IMG/VR virus record: IMGVR_UViG_2740892211_000019 | Length of the DNA: 37,093 nt | Strand: one strand, 5' to 3' | Origin: a virus | Taxonomy: Duplodnaviria > Heunggongvirae > Uroviricota > Caudoviricetes | Part shown: piece by piece, positions 1-28,020 of the stretch | Layout of the letters: every line of letters begins with the position of its first letter | How positions within the stretch are numbered: the first letter of the stretch is position 1 | Program-made: the position numbers and the translations under genes | The notes under the pieces: generated by a model | What the model saw: only the letters and a program-made list of their open reading frames with translations | The model's database searches: none | What the model was told of the DNA's origin: nothing

Positions 1-993
1 CTAATCGATGGACAGTTTATGGACACTTTCAGCCAGCGGATTAAAGTTGATCGCGTCCAGTAAAAAGTCCGGCGAAAAATGAGCGTACGTCATTGTTTGC
101 TGAATCGTTGCGTGCCCCAGGATTCGTTGCAACGTAACAATATTTCCGCCATTCATCATAAAGTGTGTGGCAAATGTATGACGCATGACATGCGTAGCCT
201 GCCCCTTCGGCAAATCCGGTTTCACCTCCTGAAGAATCTCCCGGAACTTCAGATAATCAACCTGATACAATAACCCCGTTCGACGGGTTTTAATCAGAGG
301 CACGACCGAATCCGCCACAGGAACCGAACGGGATTTTCCGTTTTTGGTGTTAAAGAACGTCACCCGGTTGCCAACGATATGCTCTCCACGTAGTTCCGAT
401 GCTTCACTCCATCGGGCACCAGTAGAAAGACACAGAATGGCAACACGACGCGCATCACCCTCCAGTCGCTCAAGAAGCCGTTCAATCTCATCATCAGAAA
501 GAAAGGCCATCTCTGTGTTCTGAACTTTCAGTTTTCGTATACCGCGTACAGGGTTCGCGTTGTGAAAGACCTCAGCTTCAATCAGCACCGTGAACATGGT
601 AGACAGTACGCATAAGTCACGATTAATACTGGACGGCATTAATCCGGCCTGTAATTTCTCTGACCGATATTCAAGCATAAATTTTCGCGTCATCTGACTG
701 GCGCGAGGATCTCCCATTTCACGAACAACCTTCCCTAGCCTAACCCTGTAGCTATCCCCGTAAGCCTGATTACGCCCATCAAGCATCCACCACGCATCAA
801 GCAGCTCTGATAATCGCCGCTGATCAGCTGGCTTAGCCTGCCATGGCTTGTCATGAAAGTTCTGTAACACATACTTCTCAAACTCCTGAGCCTTTGATTT
901 CAGGGCAAAGATTTTTCGAATCCGCTTTCCTTCCGCCCCCTGCGGTCTGACATCGACCTGATAACGTCCGTCTTTGAGTTGCTTAATCGACAT
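1..993 (-). CDS. int: Phage tyrosine integrase (P2-type site-specific recombinase)
   Basis: ORF 1..1008 (minus) translation carries the C-terminal catalytic region of tyrosine recombinases (HVMRHTFATHF ... LGHATIQQTMTYAHFSP). Preferred start is the ATG at 991..993 (MSIKQLKDGRYQ), preceded by GGAGGGG. The stop codon lies at 1..3, so the gene is complete. Adjacent divergent repressor fits P2 synteny. Confidence 0.9.
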   Translation of the reverse strand: MSIKQLKDGRYQVDVRPQGAEGKRIRKIFALKSKAQEFEKYVLQNFHDKPWQAKPADQRRLSELLDAWWMLDGRNQAYGDSYRVRLGKVVREMGDPRASQMTRKFMLEYRSEKLQAGLMPSSINRDLCVLSTMFTVLIEAEVFHNANPVRGIRKLKVQNTEMAFLSDDEIERLLERLEGDARRVAILCLSTGARWSEASELRGEHIVGNRVTFFNTKNGKSRSVPVADSVVPLIKTRRTGLLYQVDYLKFREILQEVKPDLPKGQATHVMRHTFATHFMMNGGNIVTLQRILGHATIQQTMTYAHFSPDFLLDAINFNPLAESVHKLSID

Positions 994-1062
994 GATTAGC
1001 CCCTCCAACGGATAAATTAACTAAACACTCCTTGCGATATGTAATTCGCTCAATGTGTAGAG

Positions 1063-1404
1063 TCAGCCAACATTGCGGCCTGATCGGGGTGATTTTTGGG
1101 TAATACCGATTGAAACCTGATCGCCCTCCGACTGAATAGATCCATCAAGAGAGAGAGCCGGAGCAATCTGCCCGGCGACAGGTAGCGTCTTATCTTTTAT
1201 TAGCCACAGCATGTATTTTTCAAAGCGATCGACTTGCAGAACCGCCTCAACGATTTTTGCTCTAGCGTTCTTTTGCCCCGATTCGTAATTCCTTATGGTT
1301 GCCAAAGACAACCCAGTAATATCCGCAAACTGCTTTTGTGTTAACCCTTCCGCCTTACGTATCTGACGTAACTTTTTTGCGTAGTCTATTGACAAGATAA
1401 CCAT
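1063..1404 (-). CDS. Immunity repressor, XRE-family helix-turn-helix (C/CI analogue)
   Basis: ORF 1063..1458 (minus) contains a classic HTH (LTQKQFADITGLSLATIRNYESGQ). Sits between int and the divergent early operon. Internal ATG at 1402..1404 with an AGAGG upstream is the preferred start; the longer form starting at 1458 is possible. Confidence 0.7.
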   Translation of the reverse strand: MVILSIDYAKKLRQIRKAEGLTQKQFADITGLSLATIRNYESGQKNARAKIVEAVLQVDRFEKYMLWLIKDKTLPVAGQIAPALSLDGSIQSEGDQVSIGITQKSPRSGRNVG

Positions 1405-1426
1405 TTGAGTATTAACCTCTCGCACA

Positions 1427-1448
1427 AAGATAACCTTTTGGTTATCTT
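1427..1448. promoter_or_regulatory. Perfect inverted repeat AAGATAACC-tttt-GGTTATCTT in the divergent int-C / early promoter region; candidate operator
   Basis: Palindrome read directly from the sequence. A further AGATAACC half-site lies about 30 bp upstream, next to a TTGACA -35-like hexamer at 1389..1394. Confidence 0.4.
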
Positions 1449-1508
1449 TACAAGCCAAAACAAACCATCACAAGGCGCGACAAGCGCACCAACGCAAGAG
1501 GATAACAA

Positions 1509-2030
1509 ATGCGGGACTTCATTGCCGATAAAGAGTTATCTGACCACCAACCACTTCAGGAAAGTGACGCACTCAGCGGATCCATTGATGCCGCCAACGA
1601 CGACGAGCACGAAGAAAACAAGAAAAAGCGTTCCTACAAAAAAGGAGCGACTTTGCGGCTGGATGGTCCGATCGCCGGGCTTTGCTCTCTGGAAAAAGGC
1701 GCGGCATATATTGGGCTAACAAAATCTGCACTGCGCGTAGCCATTCATCGCGGTCAAATGCCGGGACACAAGACGCGCACAAACCCGGAAGATGAAAACT
1801 CAGACGGAGTATGGTGGTTTAACGCCAAAGAGTGGGACAAGTTGGCTGATGAGCTACCAGAGCACGAGCCCCCAGAATGGCACAACTGGAAAAGTTACTG
1901 GACGTATGACCGCCAGAAAAGGAAGTTCTCTCCAGCTAATAAAGAAGACTGCCAGACCATTAACGGTAAGCGAGTTTATACAGGCAGAAGCTCAAAACTG
2001 GACCAACTCAGAAACAACAGAGGCAACTAA
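1509..2030 (+). CDS. Cox/Apl-like early protein (putative excisionase / early regulator) with N- and C-terminal extensions
   Basis: First gene of the rightward early operon; RBS AGAGGA before the ATG at 1509. Central segment (AAYIGLTKSALRVAIHRGQMP ... DGVWWFNAKEWDK) resembles the HTH plus tryptophan-rich pattern of P2 Cox as I recall it. Position matches cox. Confidence 0.45.
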   Translation: MRDFIADKELSDHQPLQESDALSGSIDAANDDEHEENKKKRSYKKGATLRLDGPIAGLCSLEKGAAYIGLTKSALRVAIHRGQMPGHKTRTNPEDENSDGVWWFNAKEWDKLADELPEHEPPEWHNWKSYWTYDRQKRKFSPANKEDCQTINGKRVYTGRSSKLDQLRNNRGN

Positions 2031-2034
2031 TCGT

Positions 2035-2457
2035 ATGAAAACAAACACGTCAGATTTCACAATAACTATTTCAAAAAATGACCAAGCATTAATTGATAAC
2101 CTGAAATACCTTGCGGAAAAACATAATAACGGACGAATTGCAATTAATTTACGACACATCACAGGAGTAACAATTGTAACCAGTTACTGGCATCTATATC
2201 TAATCGCTAAATCAGTACTTGAAAACAAAGATTCTGTTGTCAATGGAAGAGATATAGATACTCTTCCTGCACAAATCAAACCGATAGCCTATCAATTGCG
2301 TAATCGTTTTAAAAATGAAGGTGGGATTATATTTGACTTTCCCGCAGCTGTAGCCGTGAGCTTCTCTCGGGAGGATATACTTCACTCATTTCGTTTTGCT
2401 CTATCAGGTGACGAGACATTATGGCAGCTAGAAGATGCCGGGAGCAGCCCGGCATAA
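2035..2457 (+). CDS. Hypothetical protein, AT-rich moron-like gene
   Basis: ATG at 2035 inside ORF 1792..2457 (MKTNTSDFTITISK...). Sequence is visibly more AT-rich than the flanks. No family recognised. Confidence 0.45.
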   Translation: MKTNTSDFTITISKNDQALIDNLKYLAEKHNNGRIAINLRHITGVTIVTSYWHLYLIAKSVLENKDSVVNGRDIDTLPAQIKPIAYQLRNRFKNEGGIIFDFPAAVAVSFSREDILHSFRFALSGDETLWQLEDAGSSPA

Positions 2458-2463
2458 ATCAAA

Positions 2464-2655
2464 TTAAAAATCAACCAGTTGTGTGACAGGTGGGTATTTA
2501 CGCTGAATTTTGTCAGTTACTAACGCCAGTAATATATGAATCTCTGCGTTTAATGCGTCTTTATCACCCGTCGTTTTTACCCTGGGAGGGTTAATGTTAT
2601 CCAGAGCAGCACTAAGTTCACTCAACAAATTAACAACTTTTTTATCTTCTGACAT
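2464..2655 (-). CDS. Hypothetical small protein (63 aa), convergent with upstream gene
   Basis: Minus-strand ORF with ATG at 2653..2655 and AAGAGG upstream on the minus strand; followed by a promoter-like AT-rich gap (2656..2792). Confidence 0.4.
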   Translation of the reverse strand: MSEDKKVVNLLSELSAALDNINPPRVKTTGDKDALNAEIHILLALVTDKIQRKYPPVTQLVDF

Positions 2656-2792
2656 GAAAACCTCTTAACAATTTAATTAAACATAAGCCAGGACCTGAAC
2701 CGGCCAGTCCAAGTCCTAGACACACAAAAAAAATACCACAAATCAATACAAGGTGACACGAGTACACCTTACCGAAGGTACAGAGTTTTAAT

Positions 2793-3143
2793 ATGAAACT
2801 ACAGCGCAATTCTTCACAGCAGCGCTTCCGCAACGGTGCGGAACGCCATGCTAACCGTTTCGCTACCAGTGCATCACGTAGCAACTCTCGCTACAGCCTG
2901 AGCGAAACACACGCAACGCCGGATGGCTACCCAGTAAAACAAATTGGTGAACACACTTGGCTGATTGAAAAAGCAGGAATCGTGGTTCACAGATGCCAGC
3001 GCAACCCATTTACCGGAAACCGCATTTTTGCACTGAGCAACGGCGACAATCAGTTCGGGCAGGATTTCACATTGTACGAAGCACTTCGCACAGTTGATCG
3101 TCTGCTTCGCGGACAAAGTTTTATTAAACAGGCTGATTTATAA
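2793..3143 (+). CDS. Hypothetical early protein
   Basis: ORF track; co-directional tight packing with following early ORFs. Confidence 0.5.
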   Translation: MKLQRNSSQQRFRNGAERHANRFATSASRSNSRYSLSETHATPDGYPVKQIGEHTWLIEKAGIVVHRCQRNPFTGNRIFALSNGDNQFGQDFTLYEALRTVDRLLRGQSFIKQADL

Positions 3144-3153
3144 CAGGTGCTTT

Positions 3154-3432
3154 ATGACCAAAGAGCATGCACAAGGTGTATTTATTCGTTTTATTGATTT
3201 TCGCGGTGAACTGTTATTACGCGCATCAGCTATTGATGGAGTCGTTCCATCCGAAAAAAATGCAGCTACTTACGTTTATCTGAACGGCACGCGCCTGACC
3301 GTAGAACTTCCGTACCAGACTGTACACGAAATCATTAGCGAAGCGGAAAAAGCACGTAAGACTAATGGCGATGAACCCTATATCGAAATTATTTGTATGG
3401 ATTCAGAAGCAGAAATTCAGAAAGCAGATTAA
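3154..3432 (+). CDS. Hypothetical early protein
   Basis: ATG at 3154 (MTKEHAQGVF...) within ORF 3094..3432; tight spacing after the previous gene. Confidence 0.5.
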   Translation: MTKEHAQGVFIRFIDFRGELLLRASAIDGVVPSEKNAATYVYLNGTRLTVELPYQTVHEIISEAEKARKTNGDEPYIEIICMDSEAEIQKAD

Positions 3433-3443
3433 AGGGCGTTGCG

Positions 3444-3686
3444 ATGGGCAAAGAATATAAAACTCTCATTAATAAAGCACTTGAGCGTTTTTATTTTCGC
3501 TTAAGTGCATCAGGCGCTCATGCTGAACGTGCAGCCCGTGACTCATTGACCAGGGCAATCCGGAGTCTGTATGACGTGGCTTTTTACGCTGATGATCTGG
3601 ATGCACTTAACGAACTTTCCGAGCTGATCTGTGCCGCAGAATGCGGGGAACATATTGAACCGTATAAGCTGGGGAATATTGCATGA
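3444..3686 (+). CDS. Hypothetical early protein
   Basis: ATG at 3444 (MGKEYKTLINK...) within ORF 3393..3686. Confidence 0.5.
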   Translation: MGKEYKTLINKALERFYFRLSASGAHAERAARDSLTRAIRSLYDVAFYADDLDALNELSELICAAECGEHIEPYKLGNIA

Positions 3687-3796
3687 GTATATTTATCTCA
3701 TGGCTTGTTCTGATTATTTCGGTGGTCTGCGCCATTGGGATTATGCGAATTATTAATTCAGTGAAAAAGATCGAGCGTTTTTTCTCTGATGAATAA
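3683..3796 (+). CDS. Small hydrophobic peptide (37 aa, single predicted TM helix), translationally coupled
   Basis: ATGA start/stop overlap with the preceding ORF at 3683..3686. Hand translation gives MSIFISWLVLIISVVCAIGIMRIINSVKKIERFFSDE. Below the 60-aa cutoff of the ORF track. Confidence 0.35.
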   Translation: MSIFISWLVLIISVVCAIGIMRIINSVKKIERFFSDE

Positions 3797-3888
3797 CGAT
3801 ACAAATAAAACATCAAATTAAATAAGAAAACGTGAAAACCATCCGTATTAACGGAGGTATTCGCACACGTAAATAATGGAGATATAAA

Positions 3889-4155
3889 ATGAACGCAAAA
3901 GAAGAAGGCATTATCAACACATTAAAAAAAATATCAGAAGCGGAAGATGAAATGGCTAAAGATGCCGTGAAGCGTAGCCAACATATGGCAGCACTTCACG
4001 CACTGACCATCGCAAAAATCACCGCTGACGCAGCCAAAATTATTGAGGAACAGGGCAAAGAAATCGACACTCTTAAAACACAGTCAACAGTTGCAGCCAT
4101 GAATCCGTCCAGCATTGGACGCCGCATTTACATTCTTGGTTCGGCAAATACCTGA
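3889..4155 (+). CDS. Hypothetical early protein
   Basis: ORF track; RBS GGAG about 8 nt upstream of the ATG. Confidence 0.5.
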   Translation: MNAKEEGIINTLKKISEAEDEMAKDAVKRSQHMAALHALTIAKITADAAKIIEEQGKEIDTLKTQSTVAAMNPSSIGRRIYILGSANT

Positions 4156-6048: not shown

Positions 6049-8871
6049 ATGACGGCAGAGTACATCAGGGACTGGCAACAACCGCGCCACGCAGTGGGAC
6101 GTGAAGGAACGGGGATCCCCGTTCCTGAATCCGCGCTTTCCTCCTGGCTGGATGCCTACCGGGCAGAGAACGAGCGCCGCCAGGAAATGGCTGATGCGGC
6201 GTTCTCCGCCACGCCGCTGGGCAACCTGATTAATAAAAGCCTGGATGCACAGGAAAAACAGGACAAAACCATCACACTGGCAGGAGACGCCAGAAAACAG
6301 GTACGCGGTGCGGTGGATGAAGCCATGGCCTCGCTGCGCCTGCTGCCGTCCTATCTGCGCGATCCGCTTATTCGCCACCTCTCCTTCCTGCGCAAAAAAC
6401 AGGAAGCCGATCGCCGGAAAGGCAAAAAGAGCTGGCAGGCTGAACGCTACGCGCGCGGAACCCTGCGCAAAATATTCGAACGTCTGGACCGCACCGACCA
6501 CCGCTGGCTGACACCGGGTTATCGCTCCCTTGCCGGACGCGAACGCCTGGATGATTTGCTTTACCTGCCGCAGCTCAACAAGCACCAGATACAGACGCTG
6601 GCCACCATGACGGCGGCGATGTTCAGCAGCACCTTCGAAAAACTCTGCGATGGCTTTGGCGCGACTGATGGCGAGCTGACCATGGATGTAACGCTGAAGG
6701 CGTATCAGATGCTGGCCCGCATGGCGTTACACCTGCACGCCATGCCTCCGCATTATGACGCACTGACAACAGACAAAGACCGGAGGAACGAACCGGACAC
6801 GGAGCTGCTGCCGGGCGCAATCCTTCGCCTGACCTGTGCGGAATGGTGGAAACGCAAACTGTGGCTGTTACGTTGCGAGTGGCGGGAAGAACAACTCCGC
6901 GCCGCCTGTCTGGTTTCCAGAAAAACATCGCCCTATCTGAGCCAGGACGCGTTAAGCGAGTTTCGCGCACAGCGCGAGAAAACACGCGATTTCCTGAAAA
7001 GTTTCATGCTGGAAAACGAAGACGGGTTCACGATTGATCTCGAGACGGTGTATTACGCGGGAGTAAGTAACCCGGTTCACCGTAAGGCAGAAATGATGGC
7101 CACCATGAAGGGGCTGGAACTTCTGGCCGAAGCCCGTGGCGACAAAGCGGTGTTTCTGACTGTCACCTGCCCGTCAAAATACCACGCCACAACAGAGAAC
7201 GGTCATCCGAATCCCAAATGGAACGGGGCCACCATGCGCGACTCCAGCGATTACCTGGTTAACACGTTTTTTGCGGCGGTCCGCAAGAAACTGAACCGCG
7301 ACGGCCTGCGCTGGTATGGCATCCGCACGGTGGAGCCTCACCATGACGGCACCGTGCACTGGCATATGATGGTCTTTGCTCATCCGGAAGAAATCGACAC
7401 CATTGTGTCCCACACCCGCGATATTGCCATTCAGGAAGATCGTCACGAGCTGGGTGATGATATTACCCCACGCTTTAAGGCGGAGTACGTCGACGGCTCA
7501 AAAGGCACACCGACCAGCTACATCGCCACCTACATCGGGAAAAACCTGGACAGCCGTGCCGTGGATGGCATCGACCCGAAAACGGGCAAGCCACGCGTTG
7601 ACCACGAAACCGGAAAATCAATGGCCGAGAGCGTGGAACGCGCCATCGGCTGGGCGCGCCTTCACCGGGTCCGCCAGTTCCAGTTCTTTGGTATCCCCTC
7701 CCGTCAGGTGTGGCGTGAACTGCGCCGCCTTGCCAGCCAGATGGCTCGCAACCCGGAAGGACCGCAACGGCTGAAGGATGACGCAATGGACGCGGTTCTT
7801 GCTGCCGCTGATGCCGGATGTTTTGCCACCTACATAGAGAAACAGGGCGGCGTACTTGTTCCACGCAAGGACTACCTGATTCGCACCGCCTACGACCTCG
7901 CCGATGAGCTGAACGATTACGGTGAACAGAGCGTACAGATTTACGGGATCTGGTCACCGCTCATCGGGGAGTCTTCCCGCGTATGCACGCATCCGGACAA
8001 CTGGAAGCTGGTAAGACGCAAACCGGAAGCGGAAGACAGCGCCCGCGAAAATGGTTTTGACCTTCAGGGCGGCCCTGCCGCACCTTGGACTCGTGGCAAT
8101 AACTGTCCCCGTGTACAGGAAACGGACAACAACGGGACAGAACAGCCGGAAGAACGGCCAGCACCGTGGCCGCAGCTTCCTGACGGCGTTGACGTGAACG
8201 AATGGATGCGCTCACTGAAACGGCACGAACGCCGGGCGCTGATGCGTTCGCTGCGTGACAAACAGGCAAAAAACAGCAGTGATGAAATGCAGAGCTGGAC
8301 ACAGAGCCGCAAACAGCAGCGGCCTTTGCCTGATAACCACGAATTACTCGCTAAAGAATGGCGGGAATCTGCCGAATCTCTCGGCCTGCATATCGGTGAA
8401 CAGCAGATGCAGCACCTGTTACGGGGCGGCAGCCTGTACGTTGACGGCAGCATCATTGCACCGCAGGGATTTGAAATTGTACGCAAACCGGATACCCGCC
8501 CGGACAGCCGAATCACGCAGCTCTGGCAGCGCCTGAGCCGTAATCACGGCGTAAGCAGCACGGAGATCCGCCATAACCCGGTCGCCAGCTATCTGGAACA
8601 GCTGGGGGCATCAGACCCCGAAGCCGCCGCACGTCTGGCATCCACACTTCAGCAGGACCAGAACACCATGAACCCCCCCGTTACCGTGCTTTCTGACATG
8701 CTGCGCGCCATCCGCGACGCAGAGCACGCACAGAGAATCAGTGAAACCACTGAACGTGCCCGCCGCAAAGCAGACCTGCTGCGGGGTGGCCTGACCAGTG
8801 GAAACAAAAAACAGACAGAAACGGGATTCACAAATCCCGTAAATGAGCAAAAAACGCGCCGCGATATATGA
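6049..8871 (+). CDS. A: Replication initiation endonuclease (P2 gpA-like rolling-circle initiator), 940 aa
   Basis: ORF track. Contains the HUH-type metal-binding motif (HHDGTVHWHMMVF) and a tyrosine-bearing block (TSYIATYIGKN) typical of P2 A-family initiators; position matches P2 synteny. Longer than my recollection of P2 gpA. Confidence 0.9.
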   Translation: MTAEYIRDWQQPRHAVGREGTGIPVPESALSSWLDAYRAENERRQEMADAAFSATPLGNLINKSLDAQEKQDKTITLAGDARKQVRGAVDEAMASLRLLPSYLRDPLIRHLSFLRKKQEADRRKGKKSWQAERYARGTLRKIFERLDRTDHRWLTPGYRSLAGRERLDDLLYLPQLNKHQIQTLATMTAAMFSSTFEKLCDGFGATDGELTMDVTLKAYQMLARMALHLHAMPPHYDALTTDKDRRNEPDTELLPGAILRLTCAEWWKRKLWLLRCEWREEQLRAACLVSRKTSPYLSQDALSEFRAQREKTRDFLKSFMLENEDGFTIDLETVYYAGVSNPVHRKAEMMATMKGLELLAEARGDKAVFLTVTCPSKYHATTENGHPNPKWNGATMRDSSDYLVNTFFAAVRKKLNRDGLRWYGIRTVEPHHDGTVHWHMMVFAHPEEIDTIVSHTRDIAIQEDRHELGDDITPRFKAEYVDGSKGTPTSYIATYIGKNLDSRAVDGIDPKTGKPRVDHETGKSMAESVERAIGWARLHRVRQFQFFGIPSRQVWRELRRLASQMARNPEGPQRLKDDAMDAVLAAADAGCFATYIEKQGGVLVPRKDYLIRTAYDLADELNDYGEQSVQIYGIWSPLIGESSRVCTHPDNWKLVRRKPEAEDSARENGFDLQGGPAAPWTRGNNCPRVQETDNNGTEQPEERPAPWPQLPDGVDVNEWMRSLKRHERRALMRSLRDKQAKNSSDEMQSWTQSRKQQRPLPDNHELLAKEWRESAESLGLHIGEQQMQHLLRGGSLYVDGSIIAPQGFEIVRKPDTRPDSRITQLWQRLSRNHGVSSTEIRHNPVASYLEQLGASDPEAAARLASTLQQDQNTMNPPVTVLSDMLRAIRDAEHAQRISETTERARRKADLLRGGLTSGNKKQTETGFTNPVNEQKTRRDI

Positions 8872-8947: not shown

Positions 8948-9907
8948 ATGAAAATTTGTATCGACGACGGCTCCACCAACATCAAGCTGGCATGGACTGA
9001 GAATGGCGAACGCCGCAACGCCATCAGCCCGAACAGCTTCAAGTCGGAATGGTCTGCGCCGTTCGGTGGCATGCAGCCCGCGAACTACATGCTTGATGGC
9101 GTGCGCTATGGTTTTGATCCGGTCAGCGATCGCTTTGTCCAGACGACCGACACGCAATACCAGTACAGCGATGTGAATGTAATCGCCATTCATCACGCGC
9201 TGGTCAAATCAGGCATCACGCCACAGGAGGTGGATGTGGTTGTCACCCTGCCACTGAGCGAGTATTTCGACACAAACGCACAGCCGGACATGGCCAACAT
9301 CAACCGCAAAAAAGCGAACGTTATGCGCCCGGTGGAGTACCAGAACGGCGAAGCATTCACTATCCGTAACGTGCGGGTTATGCCTGAATCCATTCCGGCT
9401 GGCTTTAAAGCACTGGCTGACATGAGTCCGTTTGAATCCCTGCTGATTGTGGATTTAGGCGGAACCACGCTGGATGTGGCAAAGGTTCAGGGGCAACTGG
9501 CAGGTATCAGCCAGGTGTTTTGCGATCCACACGTAGGCGTCTCCCTGATGGCCGGTGCCGTGCTGTCGGTGATGGCCGCTAACGGTATGCGTACCAGTCA
9601 CCACATCGCCAATACCATTATCGAACATCGCCATGATGAAGCCTGGTTGCGCCAACACATCCACAATGACGCGCATTACGCCAGCCTGATGGCGGTTATT
9701 CGTGAAAAGGAAGAAACACTGAAACAACGCGTGATCCGCGCGCTGGCGGGTTTTTCGGGTTACGGGCGGGTGATGGTTGTCGGTGGCGGGGCGGAGATTG
9801 TGGCACCCGCTATCCGCGAAGCCTGCGGAGTTAATGCGACTTTCATCGCGGACGGGGTGCCACAGTTTGCTCTGGTTAATGGGCTGTACGCAATGGACAA
9901 GGAGTAA
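8948..9907 (+). CDS. parM: ParM/StbA-family actin-like ATPase (type II plasmid partition NTPase)
   Basis: Translation carries the ParM signature blocks as I recall them from plasmid R1 StbA/ParM: CIDDGSTNIKLAW, YSDVNVIAIHHAL, VMPESIPAGF, LLIVDLGGTTLDVAKV, VMVVGGGAE. RBS AAGGAAAAG before the ATG at 8948. Confidence 0.85.
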   Translation: MKICIDDGSTNIKLAWTENGERRNAISPNSFKSEWSAPFGGMQPANYMLDGVRYGFDPVSDRFVQTTDTQYQYSDVNVIAIHHALVKSGITPQEVDVVVTLPLSEYFDTNAQPDMANINRKKANVMRPVEYQNGEAFTIRNVRVMPESIPAGFKALADMSPFESLLIVDLGGTTLDVAKVQGQLAGISQVFCDPHVGVSLMAGAVLSVMAANGMRTSHHIANTIIEHRHDEAWLRQHIHNDAHYASLMAVIREKEETLKQRVIRALAGFSGYGRVMVVGGGAEIVAPAIREACGVNATFIADGVPQFALVNGLYAMDKE

Positions 9908-9911
9908 ACCA

Positions 9912-10226
9912 ATGACGACACCAACCAGACGGATAAGTTTCTATCTGAAGCCAGTCGCCGTCAATAGTGAACGGGAGGCGTGTAATTACCTCGACAGCCT
10001 GCCAGCCTCTGAACGCAGCCGCGCGCAACGCGCGGCCTTTCTGGCCGGGCTGGCACTCATAAAACGCGATCCTGCATTTGCCTATTGGTTGGCCGAATGG
10101 CCGGAAGAAGGAGCTGCGCCAGCCAAGAATAATATTCAGAGTAAATATGCCAGCACACCTGCCACCGGAAGCAATCACAGCACTAGCGAGATAAGAAAGA
10201 ACATTCAGTCATTTTTCCCAGAGTGA
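9912..10226 (+). CDS. parR: ParR/StbB-like centromere-binding protein (ribbon-helix-helix)
   Basis: ATG at 9912 with AAGGAG upstream, 4 nt after the parM stop. N-terminal beta-strand-like RISFYLKPV, then LDSLPASERSRAQRAAFLAGLAL, which closely matches my recollection of the R1 ParR core. Confidence 0.7.
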   Translation: MTTPTRRISFYLKPVAVNSEREACNYLDSLPASERSRAQRAAFLAGLALIKRDPAFAYWLAEWPEEGAAPAKNNIQSKYASTPATGSNHSTSEIRKNIQSFFPE

Positions 10227-24658: not shown

Positions 24659-26670
24659 CAGCGAAATACTACGCCATTCTGACTAATCAGGGCGCGGAAC
24701 GACTGGCTAACGCGACGATGCTCGGCAGTAAGCTGAATTTGACGCAAATGGCCGTTGGTGATGCAAATGGTGTGTTACCAACACCAAACCCTGCACAAAC
24801 AAAACTGATTAACCAGAAACGCATTGCACCGCTGAATCTTCTGAATGTTGACCCTAACAATCAGAGCCAGATTATTGCGGAGCAAATCATCCCTGAAGAC
24901 GAGGGAGGATTCTGGATCCGTGAGATTGGTCTTTATGATGATAAAGGTGTACTCATTGCGGTGGCAAACTGCCCGGAAACGTACAAACCGCAGTTGCAGG
25001 AAGGCAGTGGACGCACCCAGACTATCCGCATGATTCTGGTTGTCACGAACACCAAAGCCATCACGCTGAAAATCGACCCGTCTGTGGTTCTGGCAACCCG
25101 CAAATATGTGGATGATAAAATCTCAAAGCACGAGCAGTCACGACGTCACCCGGACGCCTCGCTGACCGCAAAAGGCTTTGTTCAACTCAGTAGCGCCACT
25201 AACAGCGATTCTGAAACGCTGGCTGCAACGCCGAAAGCGGTTAAGGCCGCGTATGACCTTGCTAACGCAAAATATACCGCTCAGGACGCCACGACGGCAC
25301 GAAAAGGCATTGTCCAGCTCAGTAGCGCCACCAACAGCGATTCAGAAACGCTGGCGGCAACACCAAAGGCGGTAAAGGCAGCCTATGACCTTGCTAACGG
25401 GAAATATACCGCACAGGACGCCACGACGGCACAAAAAGGAATTGTCCAGCTCAGTAGTGCAACCAACAGCACATCTGAAACGCTTGCTGCAACACCGAAA
25501 GCAGTGAAAGCAGCTAATGACAATGCGAATGGTCGGGTACCTTCTGCCCGTAAGGTGAATGGTAAGGCGCTTTCGGCGGATATAACACTGACGCCGAAAG
25601 ATATTGGTACGCTTAACTCAACAACAATGTCATTCAGCGGTGGTGCTGGTTGGTTCAAATTAGCAACGGTAACCATGCCACAGGCGAGTTCTGTTGTTTC
25701 AATTACGTTGATTGGTGGCGCTGGATTTAACGTCGGTTCACCTCAACAGGCAGGTATATCTGAACTTGTTTTGCGTGCAGGTAATGGTAATCCGAAGGGG
25801 ATTACTGGTGCTTTATGGCAGCGCACATCGACAGGGTTTACAAATTTTGCCTGGGTCAATACATCTGGTGATACTTACGATATTTACGTTGCAATCGGAA
25901 ATTATGCGACTGGTGTAAATATTCAATGGGATTATACCAGTAATGCCAGCGTGACGATTCATACGTCACCAGCATATTCTGCTAATAAGCCGGAAGGGTT
26001 AACGGACGGTACAGTTTATTCACTCTATACGCCATCAGAGCAGTTTTATCCGCCTGGCGCACCAATCCCGTGGCCATCGGATACCGTTCCGTCTGGTTAT
26101 GCCCTGATGCAGGGGCAGACTTTTGACAAATCTGCATACCCAAAACTTGCAGCGGCTTATCCGTCAGGCGTGATCCCTGATATGCGTGGCTGGACGATTA
26201 AGGGCAAACCCGCCAGTGGCCGGGCCGTATTGTCTCAGGAACAGGACGGCATTAAATCGCACACCCACAGCGCCAGCGCATCCAGTACGGATTTGGGTAC
26301 GAAAACCACATCGTCGTTTGATTACGGGACGAAAACAACCTCACTATTTGACTATGGGACCAAAACTACCAGTAACGACGGGAGTCACACGCATTCAATA
26401 CCAACATCAGATGGTGCAAACCAGGGGGGGAAAATTCCACTGACATCTGGGCGTCTGGCAACTCAATATACATCAGCAACAACAGGTTCCTCTGGCTCAC
26501 ATTCTCATACTGTAGGTATTGGTTCTCATCAGCACACTGTCGGTATTGGTGCACACACGCACTCCGTTGCGATTGGCTCACATGGACACACCATCACCGT
26601 TAACGCTGCTGGTAACGCGGAAAACACCGTCAAAAACATCGCATTTAACTATATTGTGAGGCTTGCATAA
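24655..26670 (+). CDS. H: Tail fibre protein H
   Basis: ORF track, 671 aa. Contains three tandem 44-aa repeats and a C-terminal His-rich block (HTHS ... [34 protein letters not shown]) typical of phage fibre tips. Confidence 0.85.
25171..25566 (+). repeat. Three in-frame tandem direct repeats of 132 bp (44 aa) inside tail fibre gene H
   Basis: Nucleotide copies are phased at 25201, 25333 and 25465 (AACAGC... anchor); protein unit [29 protein letters not shown]. Confidence 0.8.
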
Positions 26671-27248
26671 TGGCATTCAGAATGAGTGAACAATCACGGA
26701 CCATAAAAATTTATAATCTACTGACCGGAACCAATGAGTTTATTGGTGAAGGTGATGCATACATTCCACCTCATACAGGTCTGCCAGCAAACAGTACCGA
26801 TATTGCCCCGCCAGATATTCCGGCTGGCTTCGTGGCCGTTTTCAACAGTGATGAGGCATCGTGGCATCTCGTTGAAGACCATCGGGGTAAAACGGTTTAT
26901 GACGTGGCATCAGGGGACTCGTTATTTATTTCTGAACTCGGTCCATTACCGGAAAATGTTACCTGGTTGTCGCCGTATGGAGAGTATCAGAAGTGGAACG
27001 GCACATCCTGGGGGAAAGATGCAGAAGCAGAAAAACTGTTTCGGATAAGGGAGGCGGAAGAAACAAAAAACAGCCTGATGCAGGTAGCCAGTGAGCATAT
27101 TGCACCACTTCAGGATGCTATAGATTTAGATATTGCGACGGAGGAAGAGACATCGTTACTGGCTGCATGGAAGACATATCGAGTATTGTTGCATCGTGTT
27201 GATACAACAGTAGCAGCAGATATTGAGTGGCCAGTCGCCCCACAATAA
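26670..27248 (+). CDS. G: Tail fibre assembly chaperone G
   Basis: ORF track, 192 aa; start overlaps the H stop; synteny. Confidence 0.8.
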
Positions 27249-27256
27249 AAAGAAAA

Positions 27257-27282
27257 AGCCATCGATAGAAATATCGATGGCT
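27257..27282. terminator. Bidirectional intrinsic terminator (AGCCATCGATA-gaaa-TATCGATGGCT)
   Basis: Perfect 11-bp stem. The T-tract is strong on the minus strand (TTTTCTTTTTATT after the stem) and weaker on the plus strand. Separates G from the convergent acetyltransferase gene. Confidence 0.65.
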
Positions 27283-27291
27283 TTATGTACT

Positions 27292-27897
27292 CTATTTATA
27301 CAATACAGCACCGCTCTTTTTAGTTATATATGTGCAGTTCGATGGTATATCTTTATTTATAAAAGACATTGCACCTATTTTTACATTATCCCCAATTTTA
27401 CGGGATAATCCAATGATGCAACAATTAGCTCCGATATCAACGTTGCTACCAATTTTTACTCTTGAACCAGGTATGTCACCATCTATCTGTCCAATGGTCG
27501 TATTCTGTCGTAACACCAGATTTTCACCAGCATCAACAGCAAAATGAACAACAATTCCAGCATGATGGGGAATTGTTAACCCTTTTCCAATATTTGCGCC
27601 CAATCCAATTTCGCAACCAAATTTGTTAATTATTTTACTGTTTAACTTCTTGGCTGCTTTCTTATGTAATTTATTACCATTAATATACATTTCGTTAGCC
27701 AACCGCCACCAGAAAAGGAAATTCCTGTTACGCTGCTTTTTCTCTCTTAAAAGCCTCCAGATATCCATACGTTTCCGCCGAATTACTTCATGTTTCCAGA
27801 AGTTTTTTAAATTAGTAGAGTTCCCAAATAAAACAAAGTGAATTGCCATTAGGTAAGACAGCACGATAATCTCCTTAATTATTATTTCAGACCACAC
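27292..27897 (-). CDS. Hexapeptide-repeat (left-handed beta-helix) acetyltransferase, CysE/WcaB-like
   Basis: C-terminal half is built of hexapeptide repeats (GCEIGLGANIGKGLTI ... VKIGSNVDIGANCCIIG ... IGDNVKIGAMSFI). Visibly AT-rich gene at the P2 Z/fun hotspot position. Start codon uncertain: GTG at 27897, or ATG at 27849 or 27768. Confidence 0.7.
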   Translation of the reverse strand: MWSEIIIKEIIVLSYLMAIHFVLFGNSTNLKNFWKHEVIRRKRMDIWRLLREKKQRNRNFLFWWRLANEMYINGNKLHKKAAKKLNSKIINKFGCEIGLGANIGKGLTIPHHAGIVVHFAVDAGENLVLRQNTTIGQIDGDIPGSRVKIGSNVDIGANCCIIGLSRKIGDNVKIGAMSFINKDIPSNCTYITKKSGAVLYK

Positions 27898-28020
27898 ATG
27901 TTATAAGGTTAAGAGATTATAAAATCCTGTTGTTTATTATTCAAAAACAATTTTCTGAGAAGGACATACAACAGCAAGTCGCCAGTCACCTTCATCAGGA
28001 AATTGGCGACATACGTTAAA

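Follow-up and report, generated by a model that had tools for sequence, protein, structure and literature searches.

Temperate phages of the P2 family carry lysogenic-conversion genes known as 'morons', of which old, tin and Z/fun are the P2 examples. The early operons of temperate phages may also harbor convergent antisense elements, as is the case for oop/pRE of lambda and pE of phage 186. A further arrangement, reportedly described by Ranade and Poteete in 1993, is the sieB-esc superinfection exclusion of P22 and lambda, where exclusion comes with an early 'escape' function. P2-like phages are known to have defence hotspots (Rousset et al. 2022, PMC9122126), among which the int-gpA interval has been reported as a minor one, accounting for 8% of P2 systems (PMC13586616). 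We here describe a pair of small genes, ORF140 and ORF63, situated among the early genes of a P88-like prophage of the P2 family (Xuanwuvirus, Peduoviridae); the stretch of DNA analysed, 37,093 nt in its full length, is referred to below as the window. The explanation that we favor overall, and to which we would give about an even chance, is that the pair is an acquired accessory cassette occupying a variable slot, made up of two real genes that form a convergent pair and are expressed reciprocally.

Near-identical prophages adjoin dmsA in many E. coli chromosomes, including those of the ST131 strains EC958 and JJ1887, and the same sequence has also been deposited as the phage records vB_EcoM-569R5 and vB_EcoM-705R2, which are named as virions. 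The 758-bp segment that contains the two ORFs occurs in 272 of 5,426 complete E. coli genomes (about 270 of them at at least 99% identity, many belonging to ST131), always as a single copy. Carriers thus make up about 5% of complete E. coli genomes and are mainly of the pandemic ST131; the cassette is present in addition in Salmonella P2-like prophages. The features of the region are collected in Table 1, where both ORFs lie as the initial annotation had placed them.

Table 1. Position of the two-gene cassette and of the surrounding features in the window
Feature	Position	Strand	Evidence or remark
Integrase	1-1008	-	
XRE-type C repressor	1063-1404	-	
cox-family early gene, 173 aa	1509-2030	+	Borders the slot on the left; opens the early operon
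Segment missing in L004	2028-2714	.	687 bp; prophage otherwise near-identical
AT-rich variable slot with the two-gene cassette	2031-2775	.	Homology breaks and GC content
ORF140, 140 aa, 15.7 kDa, soluble	2035-2457	+	ORF list
ORF63, 63 aa, 7 kDa	2464-2655	-	Convergent to ORF140; homologues and dN/dS
Shine-Dalgarno sequence AAGAGG	2661-2666	-	5 nt upstream of the ORF63 ATG; sequence reading
Stem-loop in the ORF63 leader, 14 bp	2688-2719	-	Fold energy
Extended -10-like motif TGGTATTTT	2730-2738	-	Putative ORF63 promoter
DUF4761 early gene	2793-3143	+	Right border of the slot; Pfam DUF4761, E 8.5e-69
Replication endonuclease	6049-8871		Follows DUF4754 and more early genes downstream of DUF4761

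The gene product on the left border of the slot matches Pfam Phage_Cox (E 1.9e-7) and PHROG 23196 (E 1e-116). At 173 aa it is about twice as long as the Pfam model (87 positions), the match being confined to residues 58-129, and it has an acidic N-terminal extension that lies outside this match. Between C and cox, at 1395-1447, the sequence AGATAACC occurs three times, in two direct copies and one inverted copy that are probably C repressor operators around Pe/Pc. Elsewhere in the window, the gpA-portal hotspot (8948-10226) holds a plasmid-type partition pair composed of ParM/StbA (8948-9907, Pfam E 3e-82) and a Plasmid_stab_B protein, which is unexpected in a chromosomally integrated phage. 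In the EC958 copy of the prophage the same hotspot encodes a 280-aa multi-pass membrane protein, EC958_1039 (L031 12259-13101), that is absent from the window and was scored essential by TraDIS, with 6 insertions in 824 bp and an index of 0.007 (PMC3789825 Tables S1/S3); a role in immunity, or one like that of an antitoxin, within a system not recognised so far is conceivable for it.

Homology to the related locus L015 ends at 2030 and is back at 2776, and the point of resumption is 2776 for Citrobacter phage Shae_phiSM and 2786 for P88. From the break at the cox stop and the return at 2776-2786 we take 2031-2775 to be the variable slot. In phage P88 the slot is empty, DUF4761 following 37 bp after cox, and relatives whose cox is 78-96% identical hold other small genes there; a 68-aa membrane ORF is found in L015, L017 and Shae_phiSM, and a 64-aa ORF in L016. 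As is expected of a moron, the cassette is thus present in some and absent from other close syntenic phages and has a deviant base composition, the GC content of the slot being 0.383 against 0.528 for the whole window. The proposal that a two-gene insertion sits in the early region of a P2-like phage is therefore borne out, and the absence of the cassette from P88 and many relatives shows that the two ORFs are not conserved core early genes. A windowed GC calculation agreed as well with the initial annotation in that the 140-aa ORF is AT-rich relative to its neighbors (0.383, versus 0.50 for cox and 0.49 for DUF4761). GC content is 0.375 for ORF63 and 0.387 for the gap at 2656-2792, and at third codon positions it amounts to 0.29 in ORF140 and 0.31 in ORF63 against 0.54 in cox. 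The gap is indeed AT-rich, as had been claimed, but it does not belong to the cassette in its entirety, since 2776-2792 is the conserved RBS region of the DUF4761 gene and lies outside. No repeats or att-like sites were found flanking the cassette. Only 1.2% of 745-bp windows are as AT-rich as the slot, the remainder of them lying near 27.1-27.5 kb.

There, a second strongly AT-rich patch (26850-27900, GC down to 0.35) overlaps two genes. One, at 26670-27248, is for tail-fibre assembly; the other, a 201-aa ORF on the reverse strand (27292-27897), gave a weak match to hexapeptide transferases. This patch is probably another moron, in the tail-gene hotspot.

One prophage, L004, carries the same int, C and cox as the window and lacks most of the cassette. 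In blastn alignments, window positions 1400-2027 correspond to L004 2374-3001 and positions 2715-3200 to L004 3001-3484, and owing to the loss of 2028-2714 the cox frame of L004 reads through to 185 aa. The possibility that L004 represents the ancestral empty site was considered and rejected, because cox stops at 173-174 aa in all other relatives and because the sequence at 2715-2775, which L004 retains as a remnant, is otherwise found only together with the cassette. For the same reasons L004 has probably arisen by a secondary deletion of 687 bp. Comparison of the window with L014 shows a mosaic, with identities of 99.7-99.8% for int and C, 97.1% for cox, 99.1% for the slot and 94.0% for DUF4761. 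That the cassette is an accessory element of the moron type, acquired horizontally into the slot behind cox, forms part of the favored explanation, and we hold it with middling confidence.

Among 5.8 billion protein clusters, each ORF had only copies that were at least 95% identical to it. No relatives were found among the GTDB species representatives, and in INPHARED no phage of Salmonella carried the pair. An exhaustive HMMER search retrieved P0013 and P0016 as distant homologues of ORF140, and a follow-up profile search gave 19 proteins; wherever one of these has a named source, it is Salmonella enterica or E. coli. Another protein from the exhaustive search, P0015, consists of 1073 aa with repeats and was discarded as a spurious repeat match. 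Without exception the homologues of ORF140 are encoded in prophage early regions, in most cases shortly behind a cox gene, and these prophages differ in integrase, repressor and integration site. In nine distinct contexts (window type, L005/L006/L042, L008, L030, L010/L011, L012/L013, L018, L038/L039 and L041) a convergent ORF63 homologue of 60-62 aa stands beside the ORF140 homologue; the independent contexts sampled, about nine with and two without the pair, form a small sample. The pairs are AT-rich everywhere, with a GC content of 0.39-0.43 versus 0.44-0.51 for the loci that carry them.

The ORF63 homologues are 25-41% identical and share the invariant residues M1, D4, K6, L10, L11, A17, L18, L42, K53, Y54 and P55. 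The ORF140 homologues have conserved N- and C-terminal segments separated by a variable, indel-rich middle. In diverged pairs from both E. coli and Salmonella the junction is kept, with a gap of 0-6 nt or overlapping stops, the overlap being 4 nt in the Salmonella pairs. In pairwise comparisons free of saturation, dN/dS was 0.14-0.21 for ORF63 and 0.23-0.33 for ORF140, whereas the comparison of the window with L014, offering 2 differences per gene, was uninformative. Judged by these substitution rates, both genes are shown to be under purifying selection. The conservation of the convergent pair across contexts, together with dN/dS values of 0.14-0.33, indicates that both ORFs are real protein-coding genes and are inherited as a unit, so that coding potential is present.

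Further small genes were seen around these loci. In the Salmonella loci L005, L010, L012, L007 and L009, about 330 nt upstream of the ORF140 homologues hold one or two hydrophobic ORFs of about 35-40 aa (e.g. MYDLKNLCIDILAIIAIACLSTVLMAATIKFIITYLF), which end just before the ORF140 start and are absent from the E. coli cassette. Other accessory proteins encoded behind cox in the Salmonella prophages form a mosaic family with a shared N-terminus, 'MK(L/F)TI(E/D)(D/N)(V/A)Q(V/L)AIKG...'; the loci concerned are L030 4685-5080, L005 6766-7545, L018 4461-5339, L038 3717-4403 and L040 3226-3963. The 131-aa ORF of L030 weakly matches the N-terminal part of GpO, the capsid scaffold/protease (PHROG 73, E 2e-5). 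Two members of the family, L005 6766-7545 and P0016 (L008 6001-6678), each have a convergent ORF of 103 aa as their partner.

ORF140 and ORF63 are annotated as hypothetical proteins in RefSeq and GenBank, and the orphan status assigned to them initially is upheld by our searches. Neither matched anything in Pfam, NCBIfam, PHROGs or PADLOC, including the PADLOC-DB v2 HMMs of described anti-phage systems, nor in the PDB, whether by sequence or by profile. When every family member was run against Pfam, no family scored above the cut-off; DUF1408 was dismissed as a candidate because its match (E 0.02) was below the cut-off and confined to one member. A literature search by protein accession and locus tag returned nothing functional. 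Both proteins are soluble and mildly acidic, with a pI of 6.4 for ORF140 and 5.6 for ORF63, and an hhalign comparison found the two families to be unrelated. For ORF140, AlphaFold2 reached a pLDDT of 36 with the single sequence and of 61 (pTM 0.54) with a 15-sequence alignment; the predicted pattern is alpha-beta-beta-alpha / alpha-beta-beta-alpha-beta, and no fold match was found for this weak model. The conserved residues form no catalytic-looking constellation in either protein, and from the absence of catalytic motifs one can presume that both probably act by binding rather than by catalysis.

How the two genes may be expressed can be read in part from their surroundings. The ATG of ORF140 lies 4 nt past the cox stop, with AGAGG within the 3′ end of cox, and on account of this spacing the gene is assigned to the early (Pe) operon; it is coupled to cox and lacks a separate promoter. 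ORF63 had been described as an oppositely oriented gene with its own RBS that follows ORF140 head-to-tail. The orientation and the RBS stand, but the two genes are arranged tail-to-tail, with 6 bp between their stops. The gap upstream of ORF63 had in turn been called promoter-like, which is right inasmuch as it contains an extended -10-like motif and a stem-loop, and goes too far in that a consensus sigma-70 scan of 2656-2792 found no promoter. In each of seven ORF63 upstream regions, which include three to four sequence families past alignability, a single copy of the motif in its form TGNTANNNT lies at -75 to -83 relative to the ATG. It is followed by 7-10 nt, the stem-loop and then 32-38 nt including the RBS, and every homologous ORF63 locus examined has a stem-loop in the corresponding position. 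In the window, the segment folds with -20.5 kcal/mol on the minus strand (z -3.46, reached by 0 of 200 shuffles) as opposed to -7.8 kcal/mol on the plus strand (z -0.89); since 4 of the 14 pairs are G-U, the stem-loop forms only in minus-strand RNA. Rfam gave no match over 1000-4000. The motif and the stem-loop suggest to us that ORF63 is served by a promoter of its own, so far a motif read from the DNA, and that its transcript starts with a structured leader which would be a stabiliser or possibly an attenuator. An A/T run at 2726-2733 overlaps the -10-like motif and is polymorphic among near-identical copies (A6 in 11, A8 in 10 and A7 in 1). The paper on the EC958 genome names this run among its homopolymer discrepancies, and it could be a modulator of ORF63 expression or a mere marker of two lineages.

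According to the favored explanation, ORF140 would be made only when Pe fires, that is upon infection or induction, while ORF63 would be transcribed from its putative promoter independently of Pe and for this reason would probably be expressed in the lysogen. Early transcription would run antisense through ORF63 and over its promoter: no terminator was found between the two genes, so that early transcripts would cross ORF63, and it is from this that reciprocal expression, with ORF63 supplied by the prophage and ORF140 early in lytic growth, is deduced. Among the points that count against this explanation is the negative outcome of the sigma-70 scan for the ORF63 promoter. The 5′ hairpin and the U-rich sequence after it could moreover constitute an attenuator that limits ORF63 expression, and the AT-rich DNA of the cassette might be silenced by H-NS.

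As to function, genes with a part in conflicts between phages, or between phage and host, typically show AT-richness, patchiness, fast mosaic divergence and a location such as that between int and gpA, and an exclusion or anti-defence role, as suggested by the initial annotation, is plausible as far as sequence can tell. The ORF63 homologues were never found without an ORF140 homologue in the nine contexts, and ORF140 homologues sometimes stand alone (intact in L007 and L040), which fits a dependence of ORF63 on ORF140 and not that of an ORF140 toxin on ORF63. It is this asymmetry that favors a logic of exclusion and escape, in which prophage-made ORF63 would be a small exclusion or modulator protein and ORF140 its early-lytic partner, counteracting or replacing ORF63 during the phage's own growth. 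A conflict module of this kind is the likeliest role that we can propose; it is speculative, and possible rather than probable. In its most explicit form the proposal would be that of an unrecognised two-protein conflict system, with a lysogen-made 7-kDa blocker of incoming phages or satellites, a 16-kDa off-switch made early in the lytic cycle, and convergent transcription enforcing an either/or between them, and this we consider somewhat unlikely.

A serious rival is that each gene has a function of its own and that their linkage is by descent only, ORF140, in first place after cox, being an early anti-defence or host-takeover gene and ORF63 an unrelated small lysogenic-conversion gene that came to lie beside it. 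The stand-alone copies of ORF140 in L007 and L040, which have remained intact, would be in keeping with such independence. The same holds for the comparison of L010 with L018, a mosaic in which ORF63 is 97% but ORF140 only 51% identical and which speaks against tight co-evolution of the two proteins, and for P0016 and P0019, where the ORF140-like domain is fused to another C-terminal domain and lies beside different reverse genes. However, if linkage were by descent only, one would not readily explain why ORF63 homologues never occur away from an ORF140 homologue, nor why a tight tail-to-tail junction (4-nt overlap or 6-nt gap) survives when protein identity has fallen to 25-40%. We regard independence as unlikely, though worth keeping in mind.

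A toxin-antitoxin or addiction module, with ORF140 as the toxin and ORF63 as the antitoxin or the reverse, had also been put forward and is improbable. With the type II systems of prophages the pair shares its small size, its two genes and its residence on a mobile element, and it is AT-rich, orphan and fast-evolving. Type II genes would be co-transcribed, whereas these two lie on opposite strands and converge. An antitoxin should moreover be indispensable, and transposon insertion data argue otherwise for ORF63: in the TraDIS library of EC958, EC958_1050 received 19 insertions in 173 bp (index 0.11) and was scored as non-essential (is.essential N; PMC3789825 Table S1). By its coordinates, between EC958_1049 (DUF4761) and EC958_1051 (integrase), EC958_1050 is ORF63, and ORF63 is thus shown to be dispensable in the EC958 lysogen; ORF140, cox and C are left unannotated in that data set, so that the result bears on the polarity in which ORF63 is the antitoxin. 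The putative toxin is furthermore found alone in two contexts, and no toxin or antitoxin family of Pfam, NCBIfam or PADLOC was matched. It is the convergent layout, the insertions in ORF63 and the stand-alone ORF140 that together disfavor a classical toxin-antitoxin function.

About as improbable is a role in tuning the choice between lysis and lysogeny, whereby a leftward transcript from the putative promoter of ORF63 would cross ORF140 and cox in antisense on its way to C and int, much as with lambda oop/pRE or pE of 186, and ORF140 and/or ORF63 would be modulators. The cassette does immediately adjoin the C/cox switch, its leftward promoter-like element is situated some 1.25 kb beyond Pe in the downstream direction, and the minus strand showed no terminator between 2686 and 1177, that is before C is reached. 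Against this, the distribution is patchy, P88 and many relatives doing without the cassette; neither protein has a DNA-binding domain; the AGATAACC sequence resembling a C operator is absent from the vicinity of the ORF63 promoter; and ORF63 is selected as a protein and not as RNA alone. Finally, the idea that at least one of the ORFs is a reading frame open by chance in AT-rich junk DNA, to which the lack of family matches and of a confident single-sequence structure might have led, is effectively refuted and scarcely credible, given that the frames stay open in homologues at 25-40% identity under selective constraint and that conserved residues, RBS and synteny are maintained.

The cassette defines two new small protein families without described relatives and displays a compact regulatory layout, in which an early-operon gene faces a gene with a putative promoter of its own and a structured leader. 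Should the pair serve in defence, exclusion or anti-defence, it would be a new type for the hotspots of the P2 family and could alter how susceptible a major clinical clone is to phages; otherwise it would be one more phage accessory cassette. There is no sign of an unusual mechanism in the evidence gathered on it.

When set against the systems described so far, the resemblance to sieB-esc concerns the proposed logic only, namely a prophage-expressed factor that would be opposed by the phage's own early neutraliser, with antisense transcription. Whereas sieB and esc are nested in one gene, ORF140 and ORF63 are two convergent genes, and there is no Pfam or PHROG match that would make either a homologue of SieB or Esc. 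With lambda oop and 186 pE the cassette would share a leftward promoter inside a rightward early operon near the switch genes, an arrangement that makes convergent transcription unavoidable. It differs from them in that the leftward unit is accessory and encodes a conserved protein under purifying selection; antisense RNAs would have no selected protein product, and the dN/dS and conserved residues of ORF63 indicate that it is one. With the morons and hotspots of P2 it has in common that AT-rich foreign genes occupy a slot that varies between otherwise syntenic P2-family phages, and the cassette lies inside the int-gpA interval. However, neither Old, Tin and Fun nor any of the PADLOC models is homologous to it, and it is located directly behind cox in the early operon rather than in the classic gpA-gpQ or tail-gene hotspots. 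With respect to the own promoter and terminator of a moron, ORF63 has the conserved motif and the 5′ stem-loop, with no promoter in the sigma-70 scan and no downstream terminator, and ORF140 appears to be wired into the lytic operon instead of being prophage-expressed. Accessory cassettes of the moron type in variable slots of the P2 family are already known, and it is the two protein families that are new.
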